From Candidatus Deferrimicrobiaceae bacterium (GTDB lineage Bacteria; Desulfobacterota; Deferrimicrobia; Deferrimicrobiales; Deferrimicrobiaceae): 59,090 bases of DNA. Within the stretch, counting starts at the first letter, position 1, and each line of letters begins with the position of its first letter. Positions 14,916-56,610 of this stretch are shown piece after piece. The translations under genes were made by a program, and so were the position numbers. Under the pieces are notes generated by a model. It did not search any database. It was not told where the DNA came from and saw nothing but the letters and a program-made list of their open reading frames with translations. The DNA lies in NCBI GenBank assembly GCA_041633075.1, contig JBFKGZ010000002.1:1-59090 (forward strand), written 5' to 3'.

Positions 14916-15200
14916 CTATCGTTTCTTTCCTCCGACCGCTTCCTTGAGAGACTTGCCGGCCGTAAACTTGGGGACCTTCGTCGCCTTGATCCTGATCTGC
15001 GCACCGGTCTGCGGGTTCCGTCCCATCCTGGCTTTCCGGTTGCTCACGCTGAACGTCCCGAATCCCGTCAGGGCAAGCTTGTTCCCCTTCTTCAGGGCGC
15101 CCGTGACAGCGCCGGTGAACGCGTTGAGCGCCCCCTCCGCCTTGCCTTTCGGAATGCCCGCCTTTTTCGCCATGAACCCAACAAGTTCCGCCTTCGTCAT
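14916..15200 (-). CDS. hup: HU family DNA-binding protein
   Basis: 94 aa. MTKAELV...GFGTFSV..R.AR.GRNPQTG is the HU/IHF signature. Confidence 0.95.
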   Translation of the reverse strand: MTKAELVGFMAKKAGIPKGKAEGALNAFTGAVTGALKKGNKLALTGFGTFSVSNRKARMGRNPQTGAQIRIKATKVPKFTAGKSLKEAVGGKKR

Positions 15201-15378
15201 CGCAATCCCTCCTGTCAGTTTGGGGTAAGGTTATGGATCCCCGAATGCAAGGAAACTGGGTTATCGGCCAATGTCGTAAATTGTATCTCATTGAATGATG
15301 AAGGGCCAGGAAGTGTCAAGGCATTTTTCCCGACTGCACCCTCCCGCCGGGCCTTTGTTTCCGGGCGTTCCGGAAGGA

Positions 15379-17070: not shown

Positions 17071-17469
17071 CTACTCCTCCCGCGGGAAAGACCGGTCGTA
17101 CTCCTGGCCGGTCAGGAGGGAGGCCAGTTCCGCGGGATCCGATGGTCGGATCTCGAGCAGCCACCCCCCTTCGAACGGGTCGGCGGTGATCTTCTCGGGC
17201 GCCCCTTCCACCAGGGGGTTGACGTTGACAACGATCCCCGAAACCGGTGCCACGACCTCGCAGACCGCAAGCGAGGACTCGACCAATCCGACCGGCTCGC
17301 CTGCCCGAACGTCGGTTCCCGGCGGCGGGAGCTCGGCGAAGACGACGTCCCCCAGGAAAGAGCACGGCACGTGGGTGAACCCCACACGGATGTCCTTATT
17401 GTTCTCGGAACGCGCCCACATGTGGGTGTGAGCGTATCTGCGGTCGTCAGGGACGGGCAGGGGACACAC
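17071..17469 (-). CDS. Glycine-cleavage H-protein homologue lacking the lipoyl-lysine (K to L)
   Basis: It aligns end to end with GcvH (HMW..., [21 protein letters not shown]). The lipoylation motif ESVKA reads ESSLA, with the Leu codon at 17269-17271. The start overlaps the folD 3' end by 23 nt. Confidence 0.85.
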
Positions 17470-29954: not shown

Positions 29955-31646
29955 ATGCACGTAGATCGGACACCCCTCCCCGGAGGAAACGGATCCCCGT
30001 CCCTCCGGGGCGAATCTGGCCCGCCGGTTCCGGCGCCGCCGCCGCGCGCCAAGCGGGACGCTCCCGATGCCGTGTGTTGGTACAAGAGCATCGAATTCAA
30101 GATCATTCTGTCCGTGGCCATCACCACCCTGGCGGTCAATGGATTCTTCACCTTCCTGTATCTGGACGTCCAGGCAAGGCACCTCGATGAAACGATCCTA
30201 AAAAACGCCACCCAGCTGAGCGAGACGATCCGGAAGTCGATCCAGTACGACATGCTCGTGAACCGCAAGGAGAACGCGTACCGGATCATGGAGACCATCG
30301 CGGAACAGGAAGGGATCGAGAAAGTCCGGATCTACGGGAGCGAAGGCACGATCCTCTTCTCGACCGACAAGGACGAGCGGGGAACCATGGTGGACAAGAA
30401 GGCGGAGGCCTGCTACGCGTGCCACGCGAAGGACACTCCCCTCGAGAGGTTCTCCACGACATCGAGAAACCGGATCTTCCCGTCCGGGAAAGGATACCGG
30501 ATCCTCGGCATGATCAACCCGATGTACAACGACCAGGAATGCTCCTCCGCGGAATGCCATGCCCACCCGGCGTCCCAGAAGGTTCTCGGCGTGATCGACA
30601 TCACGATGTCGCTGGCCGGGGCGGACGAGGAGATGCACTCCGCCCGCCGCCAGACCATCGTGTTCAACCTGATGTCGATCCTGGCGATATCGGTCATCGC
30701 CGTAATCTCCCTGCTGGTGTTCGTGGGGAAACCGGTCCGGCAACTCGTCCTCGGGACCAACCGGGTGGCCCGGGGGGACCTGCACCACGTCATCCCCATC
30801 GACTCCGATGACGAGATGGGACACCTCGCGCGGTCGTTCAACCAGATGACGGAGAGTCTGCAGCGGGCGAACGAGGAGATCCACGAATGGATCCGCACCC
30901 TGGAGCATAAGGTCGAGGAACGGACCAAGGAGCTGAAAGACGCCCAGTTCCAGCTCCTGCATACGGAGAAGCTGGCCGCGGTGGGAAAGATCGCGGCGAC
31001 GGTGGCCCACGAGATCAACAACCCGCTGACCGGAGTGTTCACCTACATCAAGCTGATGGAGAGGAGGATCGAGGAGGGGAAAAACGGACCCCGCGACATG
31101 GAGAAGTTCCGGGAGTACCTCTCCACCATGAGGCGGGAAGTCCAGAGGACGAGCGCGATCGTCCACAATCTGCTCGACTTCACCCGCCCGAAGGAACCGA
31201 GCAGGAAGATGGTCAACCTCAACGCTCTCGTCGAGGAATCGCTCAATATCGTCAGGAACAAGCTGACCATCGCCAACATCACGGTGGAAAAGAAGATGGA
31301 TCCCATCCCGGACATTCCGGCGGACGCCGCGCAGATTAAACAGGTGTTCATCAACCTCATCATCAACGCCTGCGAAGCCATGGAGGAAGGAGGAACGCTC
31401 ACCATCGCGTCCCGGCACGACGTGACCCGGAACACGGAGACGGTCGCATTCGCCGACGCAGGCACCGGGATCTCCCCCGAGGACCTGCCGCAGGTGTTCG
31501 ACCCGTTCTACACCACCAAGGAGAAGGGGACGGGACTGGGTCTTTCCGTCGTCTACGGCATCGTGACAAGGCACAACGGAAGGATCGAAGTCAGGAGCCG
31601 TCCCGAGGGAGGGACGGAGATGATCGTCACCCTTCCGACGACCTGA
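29955..31646 (+). CDS. Sensor histidine kinase: TM - periplasmic domain with CxxCH and Cx4CH - TM - HAMP - HisKA - HATPase
   Basis: The two TM helices flank about 170 aa containing CYACH (30411-30425) and CSSAECH (30540-30560). After them come a HAMP domain, the H-box AHEINNPLT, and the N/G boxes. The start is uncertain, with an alternative GTG at 30072. Confidence 0.88.
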   Translation: MHVDRTPLPGGNGSPSLRGESGPPVPAPPPRAKRDAPDAVCWYKSIEFKIILSVAITTLAVNGFFTFLYLDVQARHLDETILKNATQLSETIRKSIQYDMLVNRKENAYRIMETIAEQEGIEKVRIYGSEGTILFSTDKDERGTMVDKKAEACYACHAKDTPLERFSTTSRNRIFPSGKGYRILGMINPMYNDQECSSAECHAHPASQKVLGVIDITMSLAGADEEMHSARRQTIVFNLMSILAISVIAVISLLVFVGKPVRQLVLGTNRVARGDLHHVIPIDSDDEMGHLARSFNQMTESLQRANEEIHEWIRTLEHKVEERTKELKDAQFQLLHTEKLAAVGKIAATVAHEINNPLTGVFTYIKLMERRIEEGKNGPRDMEKFREYLSTMRREVQRTSAIVHNLLDFTRPKEPSRKMVNLNALVEESLNIVRNKLTIANITVEKKMDPIPDIPADAAQIKQVFINLIINACEAMEEGGTLTIASRHDVTRNTETVAFADAGTGISPEDLPQVFDPFYTTKEKGTGLGLSVVYGIVTRHNGRIEVRSRPEGGTEMIVTLPTT

Positions 31647-31688: not shown

Positions 31689-32210
31689 GTGGGGATGATC
31701 CCGGATGCCATGCTCCGGAAGTTGCGGGATTACCTGCGGGACTATCTCTCCCTCCCGGTGCGGGTAACGAGGAACATGCCCGTGCCGGAGGGAAGCTACG
31801 AAAGGAGCCGGAACCAGTACCACTCCACCCGGATCCTCAGGGAGATCCTCACGGAGACGCCGGCCGACGCGATCAAGATCGTCGGGATCATCGACAAGGA
31901 CCTGTGCATCCCGATCCTGACCTTCGTCTTCGGAGAAGCCCAGCTGGGGGGGGTGGCATCGATCGTTTCGACCGCGAGACTTCGGCAGGAATTCCACGGG
32001 CTCTCCCCCGACGACGGGATTCTGTTCGAGCGTCTGGTGAAGGAGGTCCTTCACGAACTGGGTCACAGCTTCGGGCTCATTCACTGCAGCGACCGGGAGT
32101 GCATCATGTACCTGTCCAACACCGTGCGGGACGTCGACCGGAAGAAGACCACCTATTGCGGAAGCTGCGACACCGCCCTGTATCGGAAAAGCGAAACATG
32201 GAGGGAATGA
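31689..32210 (+). CDS. Archaemetzincin-type zinc metallopeptidase (peptidase M54-like)
   Basis: HELGHSFGLIHC then CIMY...YCGSC gives HExxHxxGxxH plus a Cys4 second site (32052-32168). FVFGEAQLGG is also family-typical. The conserved first strand (AIYIRPVG) starts upstream of the only canonical start codon. Confidence 0.8.
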   Translation: MGMIPDAMLRKLRDYLRDYLSLPVRVTRNMPVPEGSYERSRNQYHSTRILREILTETPADAIKIVGIIDKDLCIPILTFVFGEAQLGGVASIVSTARLRQEFHGLSPDDGILFERLVKEVLHELGHSFGLIHCSDRECIMYLSNTVRDVDRKKTTYCGSCDTALYRKSETWRE

Positions 32211-32212
32211 CC

Positions 32213-33580
32213 ATGGAGCCGAAGGTAAACATCCTGATTGTAGACGACGAGGAGGTCGTCCGGGAATCCCTGGCGAGCTGGCTGGCGGAAGACGGATACG
32301 AGGTGGGGGTCGCCGAAAACGGGGCCCGGGCGCTGGCGCGTCTTCCCGAGAAGGACTGGAACCTGGCCATGGTCGACCTGAAGATGCCCGGCATGGACGG
32401 GATCGAACTGATGGACGAGATCCGGAAGGTAAAACCCGAAATGATCGTCATCATCATGACCGCCTACGCAACGGTGGACACCGCCGTCCAGGCGATGAAG
32501 AAGGGGGCGTACGACTACATCGTGAAACCGTTCAACCCGGAGGATCTCTCGATGACGATCCGGAAGATCATCGAGCACCAGAAGCTGGTGAAGGAGAACC
32601 TCTATCTCCGGAAGGAACTGAAGAAACAGTACCGGCTCCACGACATGGTGAGCAAGAACCACAAGATGATCGAGATCTTCGAACTCGTCAAAACCGTGGC
32701 GAAGAGCAACTCGATCGTTCTCGTCCAGGGCGAAAGCGGGACGGGGAAGGAGCTTCTGTCCCGCGCCATCCACATGGAGAGCCCCCGGCGGGACGAACCC
32801 TTCGTGACGGTATCGTGCGCCGCCCTCACGGAGACCCTGCTGGAGAGCGAACTGTTCGGGCACGAGAAAGGGGCCTTCACCGGGGCGGACCAGGCAAGAA
32901 GCGGAAAGATCGAGCTCGCCAAGGACGGAACCCTCTTCCTCGATGAAATCGGCGACATCAGCCTCAAACTGCAGATGGACCTGCTGCGGGTCATCGAGCA
33001 GAGAGAGTTCCGGCGCGTCGGGGGAACCCAGCTGATCCCCATCACCTCCCGGATCATCGCCGCCACGAACCGGGACCTGACGAAGGCCATCGAGGAGGAA
33101 AAATTCCGGGAGGACCTCTATTACCGGCTCAACGTCATTTCCGTTCGCATTCCGCCTCTCCGGGATAGGAAGGAGGATATACCGCTGCTCGTAGAACACT
33201 TCCTCGGCCGGTTCAACATCGAGATGGGGAAGAATGTCGACGGGTTGGCCGAGTCCGCCATGCGCCTTCTCATGGACTACGGCTGGCCGGGAAACGCCCG
33301 GGAATTGCGAAACGTGATCGAGCGGGCGATGGTCGTCGCAAAGGGGAGGATGATCCTCGACGCCGACCTGAACCTTCCGCAAGCCTCCGGATCCCCCGGA
33401 GTTAAGGACAGACGCGGCAAATCTCTTTCCGAAGTGGAGAAGGAGCATATCCGCCAGGTACTCGCCGCGAACCGCTGGAACATCGTCCGGTCCGCCCAGG
33501 TTCTCGGGATCGACCGCGTCACCCTCTACAACAAGATCCGGAAATACGAACTGAAGAAGGAACCCGTGTTGAATACGTAA
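32213..33580 (+). CDS. Sigma-54-dependent response regulator (REC - AAA+ - Fis-type HTH)
   Basis: ILIVDDE...DLKMPGMDG, Walker A GESGTGKE, GAFTGA, and a C-terminal HTH. GGAGGG lies 6 nt upstream of the ATG at 32213, which sits inside the archaemetzincin stop region. Confidence 0.95.
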   Translation: MEPKVNILIVDDEEVVRESLASWLAEDGYEVGVAENGARALARLPEKDWNLAMVDLKMPGMDGIELMDEIRKVKPEMIVIIMTAYATVDTAVQAMKKGAYDYIVKPFNPEDLSMTIRKIIEHQKLVKENLYLRKELKKQYRLHDMVSKNHKMIEIFELVKTVAKSNSIVLVQGESGTGKELLSRAIHMESPRRDEPFVTVSCAALTETLLESELFGHEKGAFTGADQARSGKIELAKDGTLFLDEIGDISLKLQMDLLRVIEQREFRRVGGTQLIPITSRIIAATNRDLTKAIEEEKFREDLYYRLNVISVRIPPLRDRKEDIPLLVEHFLGRFNIEMGKNVDGLAESAMRLLMDYGWPGNARELRNVIERAMVVAKGRMILDADLNLPQASGSPGVKDRRGKSLSEVEKEHIRQVLAANRWNIVRSAQVLGIDRVTLYNKIRKYELKKEPVLNT

Positions 33581-33766: not shown

Positions 33767-33782
33767 TGGCACGTTCGTTGCC
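33767..33782 (+). promoter_or_regulatory. Sigma-54 (-24/-12) promoter
   Basis: TGGCAC-gttcg-TTGCC, with GG at 33768-33769 and GC at 33780-33781. It lies directly downstream of a sigma-54 activator gene. Confidence 0.8.
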
Positions 33783-33813
33783 TTTTTCGAGGGCAAGAGA
33801 GGAGGTGGAAACC

Positions 33814-33882
33814 ATGGCATACGTTATCTTCGCTTTCATCTACCTCGTCGTATGGGCGTGTGTCGGTCTCCGGACGGCATGA
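33814..33882 (+). CDS. 22-codon hydrophobic mini-ORF (single predicted TM helix)
   Basis: MAYVIFAFIYLVVWACVGLRTA. GGAGGTGG lies 5 nt upstream, about 21 nt after the predicted sigma-54 start site. The stop TGA overlaps an in-frame ATG of the next gene (ATGA at 33879-33882). Confidence 0.45.
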   Translation: MAYVIFAFIYLVVWACVGLRTA

Positions 33883-33914
33883 TGAAGTTTGCCGAGAAAC
33901 AAAGGGGTGCGCCG

Positions 33915-34628
33915 ATGGGAGAGGAAAAATGCCCGTTTCTGGAAATGACGACGGTGACGTTTTGCAAGGCGTTTCCCGTCAAGAAGATGATCCCGGTCGA
34001 CCGATCAACCTCGGTGAAAGGGCTTTGCCACACCGGGAACTACCGTCTCTGCTCCGCCTTCCGGGAGATCGACGGCCACAAAAGCGCCGCGGATACCGTA
34101 CGGGGGTTTTCGCTCCGCCCCGACTACTACTACCATCCCCAGCACCTGTGGGTTTCCCCGGGGAAAGAGGCAGAGGCCGAGACAAGGGTGGGAATCGACG
34201 ATTTTACGCAGCGGCTCGTCGGGAAGATCGACCGCGTTTCCCTCCCCCCGGAAGGATCCCACGTGAGGGAAAACAACGTCTGCTTCCTTCTCCACTCCGG
34301 CGACAGGAGGGCCCGCATGGTGGCGCCGGGGGACGGTATCGTCGGGACGATCAACAGGAAAGTGGTCGACGAGCCGGCAACGATCAACCGCGACCCGTAC
34401 GAAGAGGGGTGGATATTCTCCCTGCACCTTGCCGGGGATTGGATCCCCCGCATGTACCACGGAAGCGTCGCGAAGCAGTGGCTCGAATGGGAGGCGGAGA
34501 GGCTCCACCGGCTGTTCAGCAGCGACCTGGGGATCACTGCGACAGACGGGGGAGAGACTCTCCCGGACATCAGCCGCCGATTGAACGAGGCGCAATGGAG
34601 CAGGATCGTCGCCCTGTTCCTCGGATAG
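33915..34628 (+). CDS. GcvH-fold protein A: N-terminal 4-Cys region + H-protein-like domain + C-terminal extension (no lipoyl Lys)
   Basis: The N-terminal region carries four Cys: CPFLEMTTVTFC...GLCHTGNYRLC. The H-protein-like domain follows (HPQHLW...VGIDDFTQ...APGDG...DPYEEGW), and the lipoyl position is Asp. Alternative start at 33879, coupled to the mini-ORF. Confidence 0.75.
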   Translation: MGEEKCPFLEMTTVTFCKAFPVKKMIPVDRSTSVKGLCHTGNYRLCSAFREIDGHKSAADTVRGFSLRPDYYYHPQHLWVSPGKEAEAETRVGIDDFTQRLVGKIDRVSLPPEGSHVRENNVCFLLHSGDRRARMVAPGDGIVGTINRKVVDEPATINRDPYEEGWIFSLHLAGDWIPRMYHGSVAKQWLEWEAERLHRLFSSDLGITATDGGETLPDISRRLNEAQWSRIVALFLG

Positions 34629-34632
34629 GGAG

Positions 34633-35328
34633 GTGATGAAAATGGTGCTCATTCTCGTACTTTCAACGATCGCCGCCTTCCTCCTCATCGAACTCGCGTA
34701 CCGGATGTGGAGCCGAAGGGCGGAAGAGAAGGCCGGCGAGGCCGTTCCGGCGATGCGGACCGCCCTCCTGCCGGTTGCGTTGCCCGAGTTCCGTCTTCCG
34801 GGAGGATTCTTCTACCACAGCGGGCATACGTGGGCCCACCTCACGCCGTCGGGCGAGGCGCAGATCGGCCTCGACGACTTCGCGCAGGGCGTCCTCGGGA
34901 GAATCGACCGGATCGAGCTCCCGCGGCCCGGCACGGTGCTGCGGCAGGGCGAGAAGGCGTTCTCCGTGGTCCAGGGAAAGAAGAAGATCGACTTCGTCTC
35001 CCCCGTCGACGGGATCGTCAACGCCGCGAACGACGACGTGAACGCGGACACCGGAAAGGTCAAGGTGGACCCGTACCAGGCGTCCTGGCTTCTCACCTTG
35101 ATGCCGACCAATATCACGCAGAACATCAAGAAGCTCAGGATCGCGAGGGATGCGGCGAACTGGCTCGAACGGGAACTCATGGTCTTCCTCGAGTTCATCA
35201 CGCTCCACCAGGCAACGCCGGCGGAAGTGGGGATCACGATGCAGGACGGAGGACACGTGATCGAGGGCGTCATGGAAAAGATCGACGGGGAGCTCCTGCA
35301 GCTCCTGGTGCGCAAGTTCTTCCGGTAG
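34633..35328 (+). CDS. GcvH-fold protein B: N-terminal TM anchor, H-protein-like domain retaining Lys at the lipoyl position
   Basis: TM helix VLILVLSTIAAFLLIELAY followed by RMWSRR (positive-inside, so the domain is cytoplasmic). Contains HSGHTW...IGLDDFAQ...VVQGKKKIDFVSPVDG, with the aligned Lys codon at 34978-34980. Confidence 0.8.
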   Translation: MMKMVLILVLSTIAAFLLIELAYRMWSRRAEEKAGEAVPAMRTALLPVALPEFRLPGGFFYHSGHTWAHLTPSGEAQIGLDDFAQGVLGRIDRIELPRPGTVLRQGEKAFSVVQGKKKIDFVSPVDGIVNAANDDVNADTGKVKVDPYQASWLLTLMPTNITQNIKKLRIARDAANWLERELMVFLEFITLHQATPAEVGITMQDGGHVIEGVMEKIDGELLQLLVRKFFR

Positions 35329-35372
35329 GGGCCCCGGCCGAACGGGGCCCCATAACGACAGGAGGCAAACCG

Positions 35373-36260
35373 ATGAGTGTGAACCGACGGGATTTCCTGA
35401 AACTTGCCGGCCTGACGGGCTGCAGCCTGGTTGCAGGCGCTCCCCGGCGGTCGGAGGCGGCTGTAAAAAGCATCGAGTTCTACGGGTTGCTGATCGATAC
35501 GACGAAATGCATCGGCTGCCGCAGCTGCGAGGAGGCGTGCAACGAGCAGAACGGGTTGCCCGAGCCGGAGGTCTCCTTCTCGAGCGACAGCGTCTTCGAG
35601 AAGAAACGGGACACCTCCCCCGGGGCCTACACCGTCCTCAACCGGTTCCCGAACGAAAAGGACCCCGACAATCCCGTCTTCGTGCGGAAACAGTGCCTGC
35701 ACTGCTGCCAGCCTGCCTGTGCCACGGCATGCCTGACCAAAGCGATGGAGAAAACCGTGGAAGGGCCGGTCATCTACAACAAGGATCGATGCATGGGGTG
35801 CCGGTACTGCATGATCGCCTGCCCCCACGACATCCCGAAGTTCGAGTACGAAAGCGCCTTCCCGTTTATCCGGAAGTGCATCTTCTGCTACGACCGGCTG
35901 AAAACCGGGGAGCGGCCCGCCTGCGTGGAGGCATGCCCCGAGAACGCCACCATCTTCGGGACGAGAAGGGAACTGCTGGAGATCGCGAGAACCCGGATCT
36001 ACGAGAACCCCGACAAGTACGACCACCACGTCTACGGGGAGCACGAGGTAGGGGGCAGCGGAACCATGTACCTCTCCGCCGTTCCGTTCGAGAAGCTGGG
36101 TTTTCGGACCGACCTGGGGACGACGCCCTACCCGGAGCACACGTCGGGCTTCCTGTACGGCGTCCCCCTGATATTCGTTTTGTGGCCGTCCCTTCTCATC
36201 GGCCTCAACTACCTTGCCGAGGACAGAAACAAGGAGAAAACCCATGAAGAGGAAGAGTAA
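35373..36260 (+). CDS. Tat-exported 4x[4Fe-4S] ferredoxin subunit (NrfC/HybA/PsrB-like) with C-terminal TM helix
   Basis: Twin-arginine signal SVNRRDFLKLAG. Four cluster motifs: CIGCRSCEEAC, CLHCCQPACATAC, CMGCRYCMIACP and CIFC...CVEACP. Hydrophobic C-terminus LYGVPLIFVLWPSLLIGL. Confidence 0.9.
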   Translation: MSVNRRDFLKLAGLTGCSLVAGAPRRSEAAVKSIEFYGLLIDTTKCIGCRSCEEACNEQNGLPEPEVSFSSDSVFEKKRDTSPGAYTVLNRFPNEKDPDNPVFVRKQCLHCCQPACATACLTKAMEKTVEGPVIYNKDRCMGCRYCMIACPHDIPKFEYESAFPFIRKCIFCYDRLKTGERPACVEACPENATIFGTRRELLEIARTRIYENPDKYDHHVYGEHEVGGSGTMYLSAVPFEKLGFRTDLGTTPYPEHTSGFLYGVPLIFVLWPSLLIGLNYLAEDRNKEKTHEEEE

Positions 36261-37533
36261 CGACATGGGAAGGGCGCGGAAAGCCCTTCATGGCGTCCGC
36301 GAATTCGCGCGGTTCCTCGCTTCCGAGATGAAGCCGAAGGGGAAGATCTGGACCCCCTTCAACGTCATCACGGGTACGATCATCGTGGTCGGGATCGCCC
36401 TGATCGCGATCCGGTTCTCCAAGGGGCTCGGGGCCGTCACGAACCTCTCCCAGGACTACCCGTGGGGGATCTGGATCGGGTTCGACGTGATCACCGGCGT
36501 GGCGTTCGCCGGGGGGGCCTACGTGCTGACGTTCGTCGTTCACATCATGAAATTCGAGAAGTACGAGCCGATCGTCCGGGTGACGGTCCTGAACGGCTTT
36601 CTCGCGTACGTGTTCTACGCAGGAGCGCTGCTCCTCGACCTGGGGCGTCCCTGGAACGTCGTCAACCCGATCATCGGCAACGCGTTCGGCCTAAGCTCGG
36701 TTCTGTTCCTGGTGGCCTGGCACTTCCTCCTGTACATGATCTGCGAGTTCATCGAGTTCTCCCCGGCCATCGCCGAGTGGCTGAACTGGGAAAAGGCCCG
36801 CCGGGTCGTGGAGAAGATGACGATCGGCGCGGTCATCTTCGGCATCACCCTCTCCACGCTCCACCAGTCCGGGCTGGGGGCCCTCTTCCTTCTGGCGCCC
36901 GCCAAGATCCATCCGCTTTGGTATTCGCACTACATCCCGGTCCTGTTCTTCGTGTCGAGCATCTTCGCGGGCCTGTCGATGGTGATCATCGAGAGCACCT
37001 TCACCCACAAGATCTTCCATCACCGGATCGGAAGCAGACTGCGCGCCTCCCACGACGATATCCTCCTCGGTCTCGCCAAGGGGTGCATCGGCGCGCTGTT
37101 CGCCTACCTGTTCCTGAAGGTCATCGAGCTGGTCCACAGCGGACACTGGGACCTGCTCGCCACGCCGATGGGAACATGGTACCTGGTGGAGGTCCTGGGA
37201 TTCGTGGTGCTCCCGATCTTCCTGTTCGGCGCCGCGATTCAAAGGCGCAGCGTGAAGCTCGTCCAGTTCACGTCGTTCGTCACGGCGGTCGGGGTGGTCC
37301 TCAACCGGCTGAACGTCTCCGTCATCGCGTTCAAGTGGTATGCCCCGGTCCGGTACTACCCCTCCTGGATCGAGATCTGGGTGACGCTGGCCGTCATCAG
37401 CATGGAGCTTTGGGCGTTCCGGTGGGTGGTCAACAGGATGCCGGTCTTCAAGGAACACCCGGCGGCAACGGAATCCAAGGAGGAAATCAGCCCCGTAGGG
37501 GAGGTATTGAGATGGAAGGCTTCCGCTTCGTAG
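36244..37533 (+). CDS. NrfD/HybB/PsrC-like polytopic membrane (quinone-interacting) subunit
   Basis: 429 aa with about 10 hydrophobic helices. The N-terminal pattern ..WTPFN.ITG....G......RF..GLGAVTNLS..YPWG.WIG.DV is typical of the family. AAGGAG lies upstream, and the gene overlaps the FeS gene by 17 nt. Confidence 0.85.
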   Translation: MKRKSNDMGRARKALHGVREFARFLASEMKPKGKIWTPFNVITGTIIVVGIALIAIRFSKGLGAVTNLSQDYPWGIWIGFDVITGVAFAGGAYVLTFVVHIMKFEKYEPIVRVTVLNGFLAYVFYAGALLLDLGRPWNVVNPIIGNAFGLSSVLFLVAWHFLLYMICEFIEFSPAIAEWLNWEKARRVVEKMTIGAVIFGITLSTLHQSGLGALFLLAPAKIHPLWYSHYIPVLFFVSSIFAGLSMVIIESTFTHKIFHHRIGSRLRASHDDILLGLAKGCIGALFAYLFLKVIELVHSGHWDLLATPMGTWYLVEVLGFVVLPIFLFGAAIQRRSVKLVQFTSFVTAVGVVLNRLNVSVIAFKWYAPVRYYPSWIEIWVTLAVISMELWAFRWVVNRMPVFKEHPAATESKEEISPVGEVLRWKASAS

Positions 37534-38237
37534 ACATCTATGCCACGAAAGGCATCGAGTACCTCATCATCATCGGGTTCCTGGCCACGTTCGTGTTCTT
37601 CTGCCGGTACCTGTCGCTCCGGACCAAGGAGCCCGGTCCGGCCAGGGGCTCTGTGGAACACGTCGAGTGGTTCCGGGTCCCCGGAGAATTCCACTTCCAC
37701 CAGGGGCACGGCTGGGTGAAGACCGGGGAGGAGAACGTCGCCCGGGTGGGGATCGACGACTTCGCCCAGAAACTCGTCGGGAGGGTCTACGCCATCGACC
37801 TGCCTCCCGTCGGGTCGCGGCTTTCCCAGGGGGAAAAGGGATGGGTCCTTACCGCGGATTCCCGGACCATCCCCATGCTCTCCCCGATCGACGGCGAGAT
37901 CGTCGCCGTCAACAAGGAGGCCCTGCGGTCCCCGGAAATCGTCAACGAGGACCCGTTCGGAAAGGGCTGGCTGCTCATGGTCCGCCCCGAGAGGCTCGCG
38001 GCGAACCGGACGGGCCTGCTTTCGGGACGGCTCGCAAGACGGTGGATGGAGGAGACCCTCCACGGCCTTCGCCTCACGATGGGGGGGAATCTGGGACCTC
38101 TCTACCAGGACGGCGGATCCACGCTTCCCGTGCATCAGGACGGGGGGTCCCCCGTCCGGGGGATCGCCCGGGCGCTGTACGGAGAAGACTGGGTAAGGAA
38201 GGTTTCGGAGCACTTTCACACGGACGGCATGGCCTGA
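37512..38237 (+). CDS. GcvH-fold protein C: N-terminal TM anchor, H-protein-like domain without lipoyl Lys
   Basis: TM helix GIEYLIIIGFLATFVFFC followed by RYLSLRTK. Contains HQGHGW...VGIDDFAQ...SPIDGEIVAVN...DPFGKGW, and the lipoyl position is Ser. GGAGG lies upstream, and the gene overlaps the NrfD-like gene by 22 nt. Confidence 0.8.
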   Translation: MEGFRFVDIYATKGIEYLIIIGFLATFVFFCRYLSLRTKEPGPARGSVEHVEWFRVPGEFHFHQGHGWVKTGEENVARVGIDDFAQKLVGRVYAIDLPPVGSRLSQGEKGWVLTADSRTIPMLSPIDGEIVAVNKEALRSPEIVNEDPFGKGWLLMVRPERLAANRTGLLSGRLARRWMEETLHGLRLTMGGNLGPLYQDGGSTLPVHQDGGSPVRGIARALYGEDWVRKVSEHFHTDGMA

Positions 38238-54735: not shown

Positions 54736-55056
54736 TTACCCGGAACCGTCCCGGGAGCGTATCCTGCGGACGGCGTTTTCTATCATCTTTTCGGCCACCT
54801 TCATCGGTTTCACGCGGTAGGTCCCTTTCTCCACCTTTTCCTTGAGGAGTTTCAGCCGTTTCCGGCGGATCGACGTCTTTTTGTCGATACCCGATCCGTT
54901 CCCCTTTTTCCTGCTTGCACCCGGTCTGTTCACGGAATAGCTCCCCGAGATGGCATCCGCATGAGAATCGTATCGACCCTTTTCCGAAAAAACTTTACCG
55001 GCCCCGCAACATTGACCTTTCGTCCCGCGGCGGCCGGAGGGTAAAATTACCTCCAT
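54736..55056 (-). CDS. flgM: Anti-sigma-28 factor FlgM (start uncertain)
   Basis: The C-terminus KLLKEKVEKGTYRVKPMKVAEKMIE is FlgM-like. The ATG at 55056 has GGAGGG 8 nt upstream. The ORF-track extension to 55332 is antisense to the REC domain and is rejected. Confidence 0.6.
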   Translation of the reverse strand: MEVILPSGRRGTKGQCCGAGKVFSEKGRYDSHADAISGSYSVNRPGASRKKGNGSGIDKKTSIRRKRLKLLKEKVEKGTYRVKPMKVAEKMIENAVRRIRSRDGSG

Positions 55057-56434
55057 GAAAAAAACCCTCCTCATAGTAGAAGATGACGAAAATATCCTCC
55101 AGCTTCTTCTGAACGTCTTTTCCCGCCCGGATCTGGAACTCCACCCAGCCCGCTCCGGGGCGGAGGCGATGGGCCTTATCGACCGGCACGAAATGGATGT
55201 CGTTCTCACGGACCTCGTCATGCCGGAGGGGGACGGCCTCGAGGTCCTCACGCACGCGAAGAAGTCCCTCGTCAACTGCGAGGTCATCCTGATGACGGGG
55301 TACGGAACGGTGGAGAACGCCGTACATGCCATGAAACTTGGCGCGTTTCACTACATCACGAAGCCGTTCAAGGTGGTGGAAGTCGTCCATCTCGTCGACC
55401 GGGCCCTGGAAATGACGGGTGTGAAGAAGGAGAACATCCACCTGAAAAAGGAGGCCATCGGGCGCTACCAGTTCGAAAACATCATCGGGATCAGCGAGAA
55501 GATCCGGCAGATGCTTTCCCTGGTCTCGAAGGTAGCGGCCAGCGAATCGACGGTCCTCATCCTGGGGGAGAGCGGCACGGGCAAGGAGCTCATCGCCCGG
55601 GCGATACACTACAACAGCGACCGGGCGGACCGGATGCTCGCCCCCGTAAACTGCTCCGCCATCCCCGCCGACCTTCTGGAAAGCGAACTGTTCGGGCACG
55701 CACGGGGCGCCTTCACCGGTGCCCACACCGCACGGACCGGCAATTTCGAAGCGGCCCATCGAGGTACGATATTTCTGGACGAGATCGGGGAGATGAGCCC
55801 GCCCCTCCAGGCGAAAATCCTACGGGTGCTCCAGGAACAGTCGTTCACGCCGGTGGGGGGAACGAAACCGGTAAATGTGGATGTCCGCGTCATCGCGGCG
55901 ACCAACAAGGATCTCGAAAAGGAAATTGCCGAGGGCCGTTTTCGCCAGGACCTCTTCTTCCGGCTCAACGTCATCCCCGTCCACGTCCCACCGTTGCGGG
56001 AACGCGTCGAGGACATCCCGGTCCTGGCCGAACATTTCATCAGAAAGTACGCCAAAGGGAGCGGGCGAAAGATCCAGGGATTTCGGGCGGATGCGATGGA
56101 AGCGATGAAGGGGCACTCCTGGCCCGGGAACGTGAGGGAACTGGAGAACCTCGTCGAGCGACTCGTCGTCCTGAAACGGGACGGATGGTTCGAGAAGAGG
56201 GACCTGCCGGCGGCGATGCTCCCCCGGAAGGACAGGGACGGAGGAAAGGGCGCCGAGATACTGCGAAACGGCGGGCTGGATTTTCGGAAAGCAAGGGAGG
56301 ATTTCGAGGACGGCCTCATCCGCGAGGCCCTTACCCTTTGCGAAGGGAACAGGAACAGGGCGGCGGCCCTACTCGGACTGAAACGGACGACGCTCCTGGA
56401 AATGCTCAAGCGAAAGGGGATTCATAGCCCATAA
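55055..56434 (+). CDS. Sigma-54-dependent response regulator (REC - AAA+ - HTH), flagellar-regulator-like context
   Basis: LLIVEDDE...DLVMPEGDG, GESGTGKE, GAFTGA, and a C-terminal HTH (NRAAALLGLKRTTL). Confidence 0.93.
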   Translation: MKKTLLIVEDDENILQLLLNVFSRPDLELHPARSGAEAMGLIDRHEMDVVLTDLVMPEGDGLEVLTHAKKSLVNCEVILMTGYGTVENAVHAMKLGAFHYITKPFKVVEVVHLVDRALEMTGVKKENIHLKKEAIGRYQFENIIGISEKIRQMLSLVSKVAASESTVLILGESGTGKELIARAIHYNSDRADRMLAPVNCSAIPADLLESELFGHARGAFTGAHTARTGNFEAAHRGTIFLDEIGEMSPPLQAKILRVLQEQSFTPVGGTKPVNVDVRVIAATNKDLEKEIAEGRFRQDLFFRLNVIPVHVPPLRERVEDIPVLAEHFIRKYAKGSGRKIQGFRADAMEAMKGHSWPGNVRELENLVERLVVLKRDGWFEKRDLPAAMLPRKDRDGGKGAEILRNGGLDFRKAREDFEDGLIREALTLCEGNRNRAAALLGLKRTTLLEMLKRKGIHSP

Positions 56435-56545: not shown

Positions 56546-56561
56546 TGGCACGCATGTTGCT
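56546..56561 (+). promoter_or_regulatory. Sigma-54 promoter upstream of fliA
   Basis: TGGCAC-gcatg-TTGCT is a perfect consensus. It lies 50 nt upstream of the fliA ATG, and GGGAGGG lies before the start. Confidence 0.8.
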
Positions 56562-56610
56562 CCCTACGTGACCACCTCTTTCAGGAACGAAATCAGAAGG
56601 GAGGGACACG

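Follow-up and report, generated by a model that had tools for sequence, protein, structure and literature searches.

The stretch of DNA analyzed here (the window) comprises 59,090 nt of contig JBFKGZ010000002.1 from a Candidatus Deferrimicrobiaceae bacterium (assembly GCA_041633075.1). At positions 33767-38237 it carries a cassette in which an iron-sulfur (FeS) protein and an NrfD-family membrane subunit are encoded together with three proteins, designated A, B, and C, that have the fold of GcvH, the H-protein of the glycine cleavage system. The cassette is real, conserved, and uncharacterized, and its function was inferred. We hold with about even confidence that it encodes a new NrfD-type complex with non-lipoylated H-fold subunits. 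This reading is favored by the conserved operon anatomy, the promoter, the topology of the products, the conservation of HybB residues, the loss of the lipoyl-lysine, and the linkage of the FeS, nrfD, and C genes.

All six cistrons that the original prediction had placed behind a single sigma-54 promoter were found on the forward strand. The -24/-12 element TGGCACGTTCGTTGC (33767-33781, +) matches the consensus TGGCAC-N5-TTGC exactly, and the same motif occupies the equivalent place in 18 of the fetched loci. It is followed by a hydrophobic transmembrane (TM) mini-peptide of 22 aa, MAYVIFAFIYLVVWACVGLRTA (33814-33882, +), with a GGAGG ribosome-binding site upstream; in 14 other non-redundant loci, including relatives of around 55% identity, a hydrophobic peptide of 22-26 aa begins 47-63 nt past the sigma-54 match. 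Protein A (33879-34628, +; 249 aa) is soluble and consists of a 4-Cys module, the GcvH-fold, and a C-terminal extension. Its long form overlaps the mini-peptide gene by 4 nt (ATGA), but since most A homologues have 236-237 aa, the start conserved among them is probably Met13 (33915). Protein B (34633-35328, +; 231 aa, GTG start) has an N-terminal TM anchor, the GcvH-fold, and an extension with VGITMQDGG. The FeS protein (35373-36260, +; 295 aa) is a Tat-exported (twin-arginine translocation), periplasmic protein of the HmcB/HybA type with four [4Fe-4S] motifs and a C-terminal TM anchor, and the NrfD-family subunit (36244-37533, +; 429 aa) is a 10-TM protein of the HmcC/HybB type. Protein C (37512-38237, +; 241 aa) begins with the conserved segment DIYATKGIEYLI, followed by a TM helix, the GcvH-fold, and an extension with a duplicated QDGG. 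The junctions agreed with the predicted figures, with gaps of 4 nt between A and B and 44 nt between B and the FeS gene, and overlaps of 17 nt between the FeS gene and nrfD and 22 nt between nrfD and C. Scans of the operon for terminators and sigma-70 promoters gave no excess over shuffled controls.

The GcvH-fold claimed for A, B, and C was upheld by both profile and fold searches. The Pfam model GCV_H (PF01597) matched with 69, 66, and 89 bits, respectively, against a cut-off of 22.2. The scores with TIGR00527 (58, 62, and 80 bits; cut-off 115.85) and NF002270 (68, 71, and 92 bits; cut-off 117) were all far short of the curated equivalog or subfamily thresholds. In the AlphaFold 2 (AF2) model of C, an N-terminal TM helix leads into a confidently modeled H-protein core, beyond which come a long helix, a loop of low confidence, and a terminal helix. 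Superposition of this model onto solved H-proteins with Foldseek (1onl, 3a8i) gave a TM-score of 0.91-0.93 and a root-mean-square deviation of 1.3-1.7 Å. The Foldseek search of C against the Protein Data Bank (PDB) returned H-proteins and biotinyl domains only, with no match for the C-terminal extension. The core of A was modeled as confidently as that of C, and the N-terminal 4-Cys module of A had a pLDDT (the per-residue model confidence) below 50. The three proteins share 30-34% identity with one another over 170-190 residues, extension included, and around 30-35% with E. coli GcvH over the core, in which the H-protein elements SP.DG and DP(Y/F)..GW are well kept.

The extension of 60-70 aa is common to A, B, and C and is missing from E. 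coli GcvH and from the folD-linked GcvH homologue of the window. This agrees with the original prediction. The homologue itself, which lies on the minus strand (17071-17469, -; 132 aa, GCV_H 107 bits), has a Leu at the lipoyl-Lys position, and the ES(V)K lysine context is kept by no GcvH-family gene of the window. Some C homologues (P0011, P0016, P0022, P0058) also carry a precomputed match to Pfam PF28260.

The position of the lipoyl-lysine was fixed by profile alignment to a solved H-protein. In A, this position is occupied by Gln, Asp, or Pro, with Lys in 2 of 35 sequences, and in C by Ser in 38 of 52. Since A and C have no Lys at this position, a role as lipoyl swinging arm is unlikely for both. 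B differs in that its orthologues have Gly at the canonical site in 22 of 38 sequences and, at the next residue downstream, a Lys that is nearly invariant (motif Q[GS]xK[KR]I[DE]FVSP); the B protein of the window itself has Lys at the canonical position. The hairpin Lys of B has basic neighbors, sits one position off in three sequences, and gives way to Arg or His in distant B-like proteins. The residues found exclude lipoylation of A and C and make that of B doubtful. Among the two roles proposed originally, that of a swinging-arm carrier is consequently weakened, the lysine being absent from A and C and displaced in B, and the recruitment of the H-fold as a subunit fits better. Judged by the features that define GcvH, the three proteins have the fold but lack the other three of four, namely an equivalog-level score, the lipoyl-Lys (in A and C), and a link to gcv genes.

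The topology was likewise as predicted. B has a TM segment at residues 4-22, and the positive-inside rule favors a cytoplasmic location of the GcvH domain (Nout-Cin) in 95% of the 38 B and in 90% of the 52 C sequences. Hydrophobic segments are absent from A.

Both partners of the FeS-NrfD pair were identified with the architecture first assigned to them. The FeS protein matched Fer4_11 with 63 bits and the twin-arginine model TAT_signal with 26.6 bits (cut-off 16.7), its four Cys motifs are conserved in 48 sequences, and its C-terminal TM segment spans residues 260-278. Its best named families were HmcB (356.7 bits, cut-off 420) and HybA (233.2 bits, cut-off 263). The NrfD protein matched PF03916 with 52 bits (cut-off 25.8), has 10 hydrophobic segments, and scored 422.5 bits with HmcC (cut-off 550) and 250.4 bits with HybB (cut-off 450). 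It thus shows the family profile, the helix number, and the adjoining Tat-exported 4x[4Fe-4S] protein by which NrfD-family subunits are recognized. Alignment of 47 family members with E. coli HybB (locus L060) indicated that the equivalents of R89, Y99, E148, and H184, which are needed for H2 oxidation in E. coli (PMC8076601), are invariant. The equivalents of D58, D109, S129, K198, H200, E291, and R329 are conserved in the 47 sequences, and those of S105, E133, and S190 are not. According to PMC8076601, NrfD proteins are free of redox cofactors. From the family scores and the conserved HybB residues, the pair appears to be a functional module of the HybAB/HmcBC kind that interacts with quinone and conducts protons.

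Directly upstream of the promoter lie three genes on the forward strand, two of them regulatory. The sensor histidine kinase (29955-31646, +) has HAMP, HisKA, and HATPase_c domains, and its TM segments at residues 46-64 and 239-257 flank a periplasmic domain of around 175 aa. The NtrC-type response regulator (32213-33580, +) is a sigma-54 activator with Response_reg, Sigma54_activat (232 bits), and HTH_8 domains. The exact, position-conserved promoter and a bacterial enhancer-binding protein with a Sigma54_activat domain, adjoining a kinase with HisKA and HATPase_c, are the marks of a two-component/sigma-54 system. The heme-sensor/sigma-54 control suggested earlier therefore stands as to sensor, activator, and promoter, with the correction that the heme motifs are one CxxCH and one Cx4CH; both are kept in 31 orthologues. 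Between the two regulators lies a zinc metallopeptidase of the archaemetzincin type (31689-32210, +), which matched Peptidase_M54 (PF07998) with 90.8 bits and contains the motif HELGHxFGLxHC. This position of the M54 gene between the kinase and regulator genes is conserved, and in five loci (L063, L065-67, L070) an M54 gene stands beside Cys4-GcvH genes without kinase or regulator. Its role as a companion of the cassette is an addition to the original prediction.

Homologues of C are numerous, with at least 729 clusters at E <1e-5. For the census of the cassette, a peptide-pattern scan with two patterns over one genome per GTDB species yielded 54 loci, all from metagenome-assembled genomes (MAGs), in which gene presence was scored by tblastn. 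The FeS, nrfD, and C genes occurred together in 44 of the 54 loci, with nrfD directly followed by C in 42; 28 loci had kinase, M54, and activator, and 19 had the full set of eight large genes. Many of the loci without the full set are short or truncated contigs. The closest relatives of the window cassette, with 88-97% protein identity, are in Deferrimicrobiaceae MAGs. The carriers are labeled Deferrimicrobiaceae/Deferrimicrobia, 'Deltaproteobacteria', Anaeromyxobacter, Gemmatimonadota, Acidobacteriota, Calditrichota, Schekmanbacteria, Bdellovibrionales, and others; some of these labels are clearly doubtful. The gene order is thus not unique to this contig, as the neighborhood census had been meant to establish, but conserved in MAGs labeled as several phyla. 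It does vary: the regulators lie downstream in Gemmatimonadota and Calditrichota, A-B-C precede FeS-NrfD in L031, and the two gene groups are divergent in L016. One Deferrimicrobiaceae MAG (CAWBVY01) has two copies on different contigs (L016 and L025), one of them with FeS-NrfD divergent from A-B-C. Near-identical or typical cassettes were also seen on contigs labeled Limnocylindria, Arthrobacter, Actinomycetota, or Patescibacteria (L006, L019, L023; P0118), and these labels are probably binning errors.

All-against-all clustering of the open reading frames (ORFs) of 59 loci disclosed no further conserved neighbor, the other large clusters being shadow ORFs of known components. Neither lipoate ligase, lipoate synthase, or dihydrolipoamide dehydrogenase nor gcvT, gcvP, lpd, or sHdr genes were among the conserved neighbors in these 59 loci. 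Two or more CxxCH motifs were found in no ORF of the whole window, which hence encodes no multiheme cytochrome, and the operon and its flanks have no hydrogenase subunit or maturation genes. The absence of a catalytic partner, as noted originally, consequently holds for the conserved neighbors in the 59 clustered loci and for the window flanks.

The 4-Cys module of A (CP[FY]L...FC...P...C...C; the Cys4 module) proved to be a separable unit. The predicted spacing, CPF-x8-C-x20-C-x7-C, was borne out exactly, and all of 38 homologues keep the four Cys. The module occurs alone as a protein of around 74 aa in L003 and L036, and in tandem before the GcvH domain in L034, L063, L065, and L070. Among 1.84 billion representative proteins searched, 132 matched, mostly stand-alone proteins of 60-120 aa or fusions of around 300 aa, and GCV_H was present in 7 of 10 sampled fusions. 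A second 4-Cys motif, CIW..AGV..YR.C..NY.C..C, replaces the first in Gemmatimonadota and Schekmanbacteria, and both occur in one protein in L064; the loose regular expression used for this motif produced a few false positives (e.g., window 5918, L058), which were disregarded. When PDB sequences were searched by profile, only the GcvH part gave a match; the module is covered by no model of Pfam or NCBIfam, and a word-index search with the 62-aa module alone returned just five split-gene fragments of the same cassette.

The extensions contain a tail motif, [LVIM]G.T..DGG (LGxTxxDGG), whose distance from the C-terminus is exactly 24 residues in both A and B. It reads LGITATDGGE in A, followed by 24 aa, and C carries the looser form LGPLYQDGG...QDGG. 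Six-frame translation of the window and of every fetched locus showed the strict motif elsewhere only on TM mini-proteins of 60-90 aa, in which a TM helix is followed by LG(F/L/P)T(M/I)ADGGE (e.g., LGFTMADGGE) and a short charged tail. Their genes follow soluble Cys4-GcvH genes with one or two Cys4 motifs in L034, L065-68, and L070, and were located at L034:~1000-1250, L065:9779-9988, L068:10890-11108 and 15046-15309, and L070:4420-4665. The mini-proteins resemble protein B without its GcvH domain. A similar TM ORF at L063:6217-6396 is ended by the contig edge before any motif. The tail region had low AF2 confidence in the models of A and C, which fits a segment ordered only on a partner.

The same parts recur in a sister cassette built on NuoEF-type subunits, which, like the tail motif, was absent from the original prediction. 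In L057 (1475-6550) and in the 11 metagenome loci L071-L081, genes for kinase, activator, and M54 stand on the flanks of an operon in which one gene encodes a HydA/NuoG-like N-terminus with [2Fe-2S] and 2x[4Fe-4S] clusters, followed by the Cys4 motif, the GcvH-fold, and the DGG tail. The other genes encode a protein with two Cys4 motifs and a GcvH-fold, two NuoE-like subunits, and one NuoF-like subunit. Often, another trio of regulators is present as well, together with a protein of 764 aa that ends in a GcvH-fold. The Cys4/GcvH unit of this operon sits in the place of the catalytic domain at the end of an NADH-linked FeS chain.

Further variants of the cassette contain additional redox genes, none of which recurs among them. 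L070, the sole metagenome contig seen with a molybdoenzyme beside the cassette, encodes a 716-aa, cytoplasmic enzyme of the Mo/W-bisPGD (molybdenum or tungsten bis-pyranopterin guanine dinucleotide) type (L070:363-2513) without an evident Tat signal, directly upstream of M54, the GcvH protein with two Cys4 motifs, the mini-protein, FeS, NrfD, and C. A cytochrome c3-like gene lies between the regulator and the FeS gene in L068 (14178-14807), and a divergent 665-aa multiheme cytochrome with a Ni_hydr_CYTB cytochrome b was found in L063 (1602-4252). The contigs L065, L066, and L067, from three independent assemblies, break shortly past the gene with two Cys4 motifs and GcvH, inside a C-type gene, which hints at a repeat or strain-variable region; UbiD/UbiX-type carboxylase genes are nearby.

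As a new NrfD-type complex, the cassette might work as follows. The domain of the kinase with heme c motifs would sense a periplasmic redox or ligand signal and act through the NtrC-type activator on the sigma-54 promoter at 33767. The FeS protein and NrfD would form a quinone-interacting, proton-conducting module, exchanging electrons between the menaquinone pool and periplasmic carriers, which are probably soluble c-type cytochromes encoded elsewhere. C, whose gene is translationally coupled to nrfD, and B where present would each insert one helix beside NrfD, with their GcvH-fold domains on the cytoplasmic face. Because A and C have lost the lipoyl-lysine, the fold would serve in them as a scaffold instead of a lipoyl carrier. 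The soluble A would join C and B via the shared tails and add a 4-Cys metal or Fe-S site, while the LGxTxxDGG tails would serve for docking, either within this cap, to keep it assembled, or between the cap and NrfD. Since the Cys4/GcvH module is also fused to NuoG-like ferredoxin domains beside NuoE/NuoF-like subunits, the cap may be a cytoplasmic redox or control end, which either gates the N-side proton path of NrfD or exchanges electrons at the membrane surface. The M54 peptidase probably would mature or turn over the tail-bearing proteins. More tentatively, the Cys4 module, the non-lipoylated GcvH-fold, the LGxTxxDGG tail, and M54 could constitute a portable cytoplasmic module, pluggable into HmcBC-type or NuoEF-type complexes, in which the arm cleft of the H-protein was repurposed for the DGG tail of a neighboring subunit; we regard this extension as possible but doubtful.

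Several points weigh against the NrfD-type complex so drawn. No heme-b protein or other transmembrane electron wire is encoded, so that there is no evident electron route from the periplasmic FeS chain to the cytoplasmic A; the NuoEF-linked cassette argues for a redox role of the cap, whereas the absence of a wire argues against electrons from the periplasmic side. B and C contain no conserved Cys or cofactor motif, and the Cys4 module, for which AF2 gave no confident fold, could be a zinc site instead of an Fe-S site. Neither 4-Cys motif is present in some cassettes (Calditrichota, L042-44, L046), and the module is therefore not essential to the core. A periplasmic partner was not found either, the window being without an ORF of at least two CxxCH. 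The association of A, B, and C with NrfD was deduced from gene coupling alone, and all steps of the mechanism come from computation. Finally, since the carriers are all MAGs and some labels are clearly doubtful, the spread over phyla may be overstated.

Other explanations were weighed against the same evidence. If the H-fold proteins were reduced to their public annotation, 'glycine cleavage system protein H', the locus would be a chance juxtaposition or mis-annotation of ordinary glycine-cleavage genes beside an NrfCD pair. An arrangement with translational overlaps that is conserved in MAGs labeled as several phyla in effect refutes chance; moreover, true GcvH has no TM anchor, no Cys4 module, and no such C-terminal extension, the scores are below the equivalog cut-offs, and no gcvT or gcvP is among the conserved neighbors. 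We consider this explanation hardly credible. The proteins could instead be lipoylated or otherwise acylated swinging-arm carriers, with B, and perhaps its paralogues, modified on the hairpin Lys and shuttling reducing equivalents or a thiol-bound intermediate at the membrane, like LbpA/sHdr or the H-protein. The preserved fold with SP.DG and DP(Y/F)..GW, the near-invariant hairpin Lys of the B orthologues, and the canonical Lys in the window's own B are what such carriers would display. However, the canonical position is Gln, Asp, or Pro in A (Lys 2/35), Ser in C (38/52), and Gly in B (22/38); the Lys that B conserves is one residue downstream, has basic flanks, and becomes Arg or His in distant B-like proteins. 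With A, B, and C far under the GcvH equivalog cut-offs and no lipoate ligase, lipoate synthase, or dihydrolipoamide dehydrogenase as a conserved neighbor, this alternative is quite improbable.

A role confined to biogenesis is also improbable. A, B, C, and M54 would then act only as assembly or quality-control factors of the FeS protein and NrfD, in the manner of REMP (redox enzyme maturation protein) chaperones or hydrogenase maturation proteases, and would be absent from the mature complex. This would account for the dedicated metallopeptidase that is always nearby, for shared C-terminal tails serving as recognition or cleavage signals, and for the location of A in the cytoplasm, where a chaperone of a Tat substrate must be. 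On the other hand, the 22-nt overlap of C with nrfD and the invariant TM segment at the N-terminus of C are what a stoichiometric membrane subunit should show, and a GcvH-like domain is covalently fused to the FeS subunit in the NuoEF-linked cassette, where no Tat substrate was noted. Three paralogues and motif-bearing TM mini-proteins also exceed the needs of a chaperone. The remaining alternative, which we consider unlikely, is a reduced Hmc/Tmc-type transmembrane electron conduit to a cytoplasmic acceptor, with the Cys4 center of A replacing HmcF or a DsrC-like protein substrate. HmcB and HmcC are the top named families, the small TM peptide is comparable to HmcD, the small TM peptide of Hmc, and the NADH-to-FeS chain of the NuoEF-linked cassette ends in Cys4-GcvH proteins; a cytochrome c3-like gene accompanies one variant, and a gene for cytochrome b is close by in another. 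However, neither an HmcE/NarI-type heme-b subunit nor a CCG-domain protein is present in the window or conserved in the 54 loci. Reading of the sequences directly disclosed no conserved His in the TM helices of B, C, or the mini-peptide, and NrfD proteins themselves have no redox cofactor for such a conduit (PMC8076601).

The cassette was also compared with known systems. The 2021 review of NrfD proteins lists 15 complex types, none with a GcvH-like subunit (PMC8076601), and full-text literature searches found no published description of the cassette. The statement that no characterized complex has this composition can thus be kept for the literature searched and for the complex types of that review. 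The nearest relatives are the Hmc/Nhc/Ohc complexes of sulfate reducers, which have the best-scoring named families (HmcB, HmcC), a Tat-exported four-cluster protein with a C-terminal anchor, a 10-TM NrfD-type subunit, and a small hydrophobic peptide in the operon. In contrast to these, the cassette scores under the HmcB and HmcC equivalog cut-offs (420 and 550), is without multiheme cytochrome (HmcA), heme-b HmcE, and CCG-type HmcF, both in the operon and as genes conserved across related loci, and has up to three GcvH-fold proteins, an M54 peptidase, and sigma-54 control. HybA/HybB of E. coli hydrogenase-2 are the second-best family match, with the proton-path and quinone-site residues of HybB largely conserved, but the scores (233.2 vs 263 and 250.4 vs 450) fall short, S105, E133, and S190 are not kept, hydrogenase subunits are missing, and GcvH-fold proteins precede and follow the FeS-NrfD pair in place of HybO and HybC. 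Because the equivalog thresholds were failed and the partner subunits are lacking, the cassette was not filed under Hmc or Hyb, although it would seem to work most like HybAB/HmcBC-type quinone modules.

The glycine cleavage H-protein, LbpA (sHdr), and GcvH-L have the same fold, with GCV_H above threshold. A and C differ from them in lacking the lipoyl-Lys, which is displaced in B, and the cassette proteins add TM anchors, the Cys4 module, and the 60-70 aa extension with LGxTxxDGG; P-, T-, and L-protein, sHdr, and lipoate-ligase genes are not among the conserved neighbors. RnfC and NqrA contain lipoyl-like barrel-sandwich-hybrid domains without a prosthetic group, which are structural and located on the cytoplasmic side of membrane redox complexes. 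They provide a precedent for the scaffold reading, but belong to another fold subfamily (not GCV_H) and are fused to a catalytic subunit, unlike separate TM-anchored proteins. The sister cassette shares with HydABC/NuoEFG complexes the NuoE- and NuoF-like subunits and the [2Fe-2S] + 2x[4Fe-4S] N-terminus of HydA/NuoG, whereas the H-cluster or Mo-bisPGD domain is replaced by the Cys4 motif, the GcvH-fold, and the DGG tail.

Modules of the NrfD type belong to the most widely distributed components of anaerobic respiration. The cassette would add a type of NrfD complex whose cytoplasmic side is derived from a fold known so far as a lipoyl carrier, without the conserved Lys in A and C. It is common in abundant, uncultured lineages of soil and sediment (Deferrimicrobia, Gemmatimonadota, Acidobacteriota), and its function therefore bears on their energy conservation. 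The analysis also yielded leads on the role of non-lipoylated GcvH paralogues, a first genomic context for bacterial archaemetzincin-type peptidases, and a tail motif that is a possible docking code. If the portable-module reading is true, both the terminal module and its principle of assembly would be new to electron-transport complexes.

The genes flanking the cassette have housekeeping functions, with PBP1 and IleRS upstream and an NHL protein, an outer-membrane efflux protein (OEP), and GlnA downstream. A second exact sigma-54 promoter, TGGCACGCATGTTGC (56546-56560, +), precedes ORFs starting at 56568 and 56611. Just upstream of it, the ORF at 55055-56434 (+) looks like another sigma-54 activator, as judged solely via shadow-ORF clustering, and together this ORF and the promoter region appear to be a separate sigma-54 unit.

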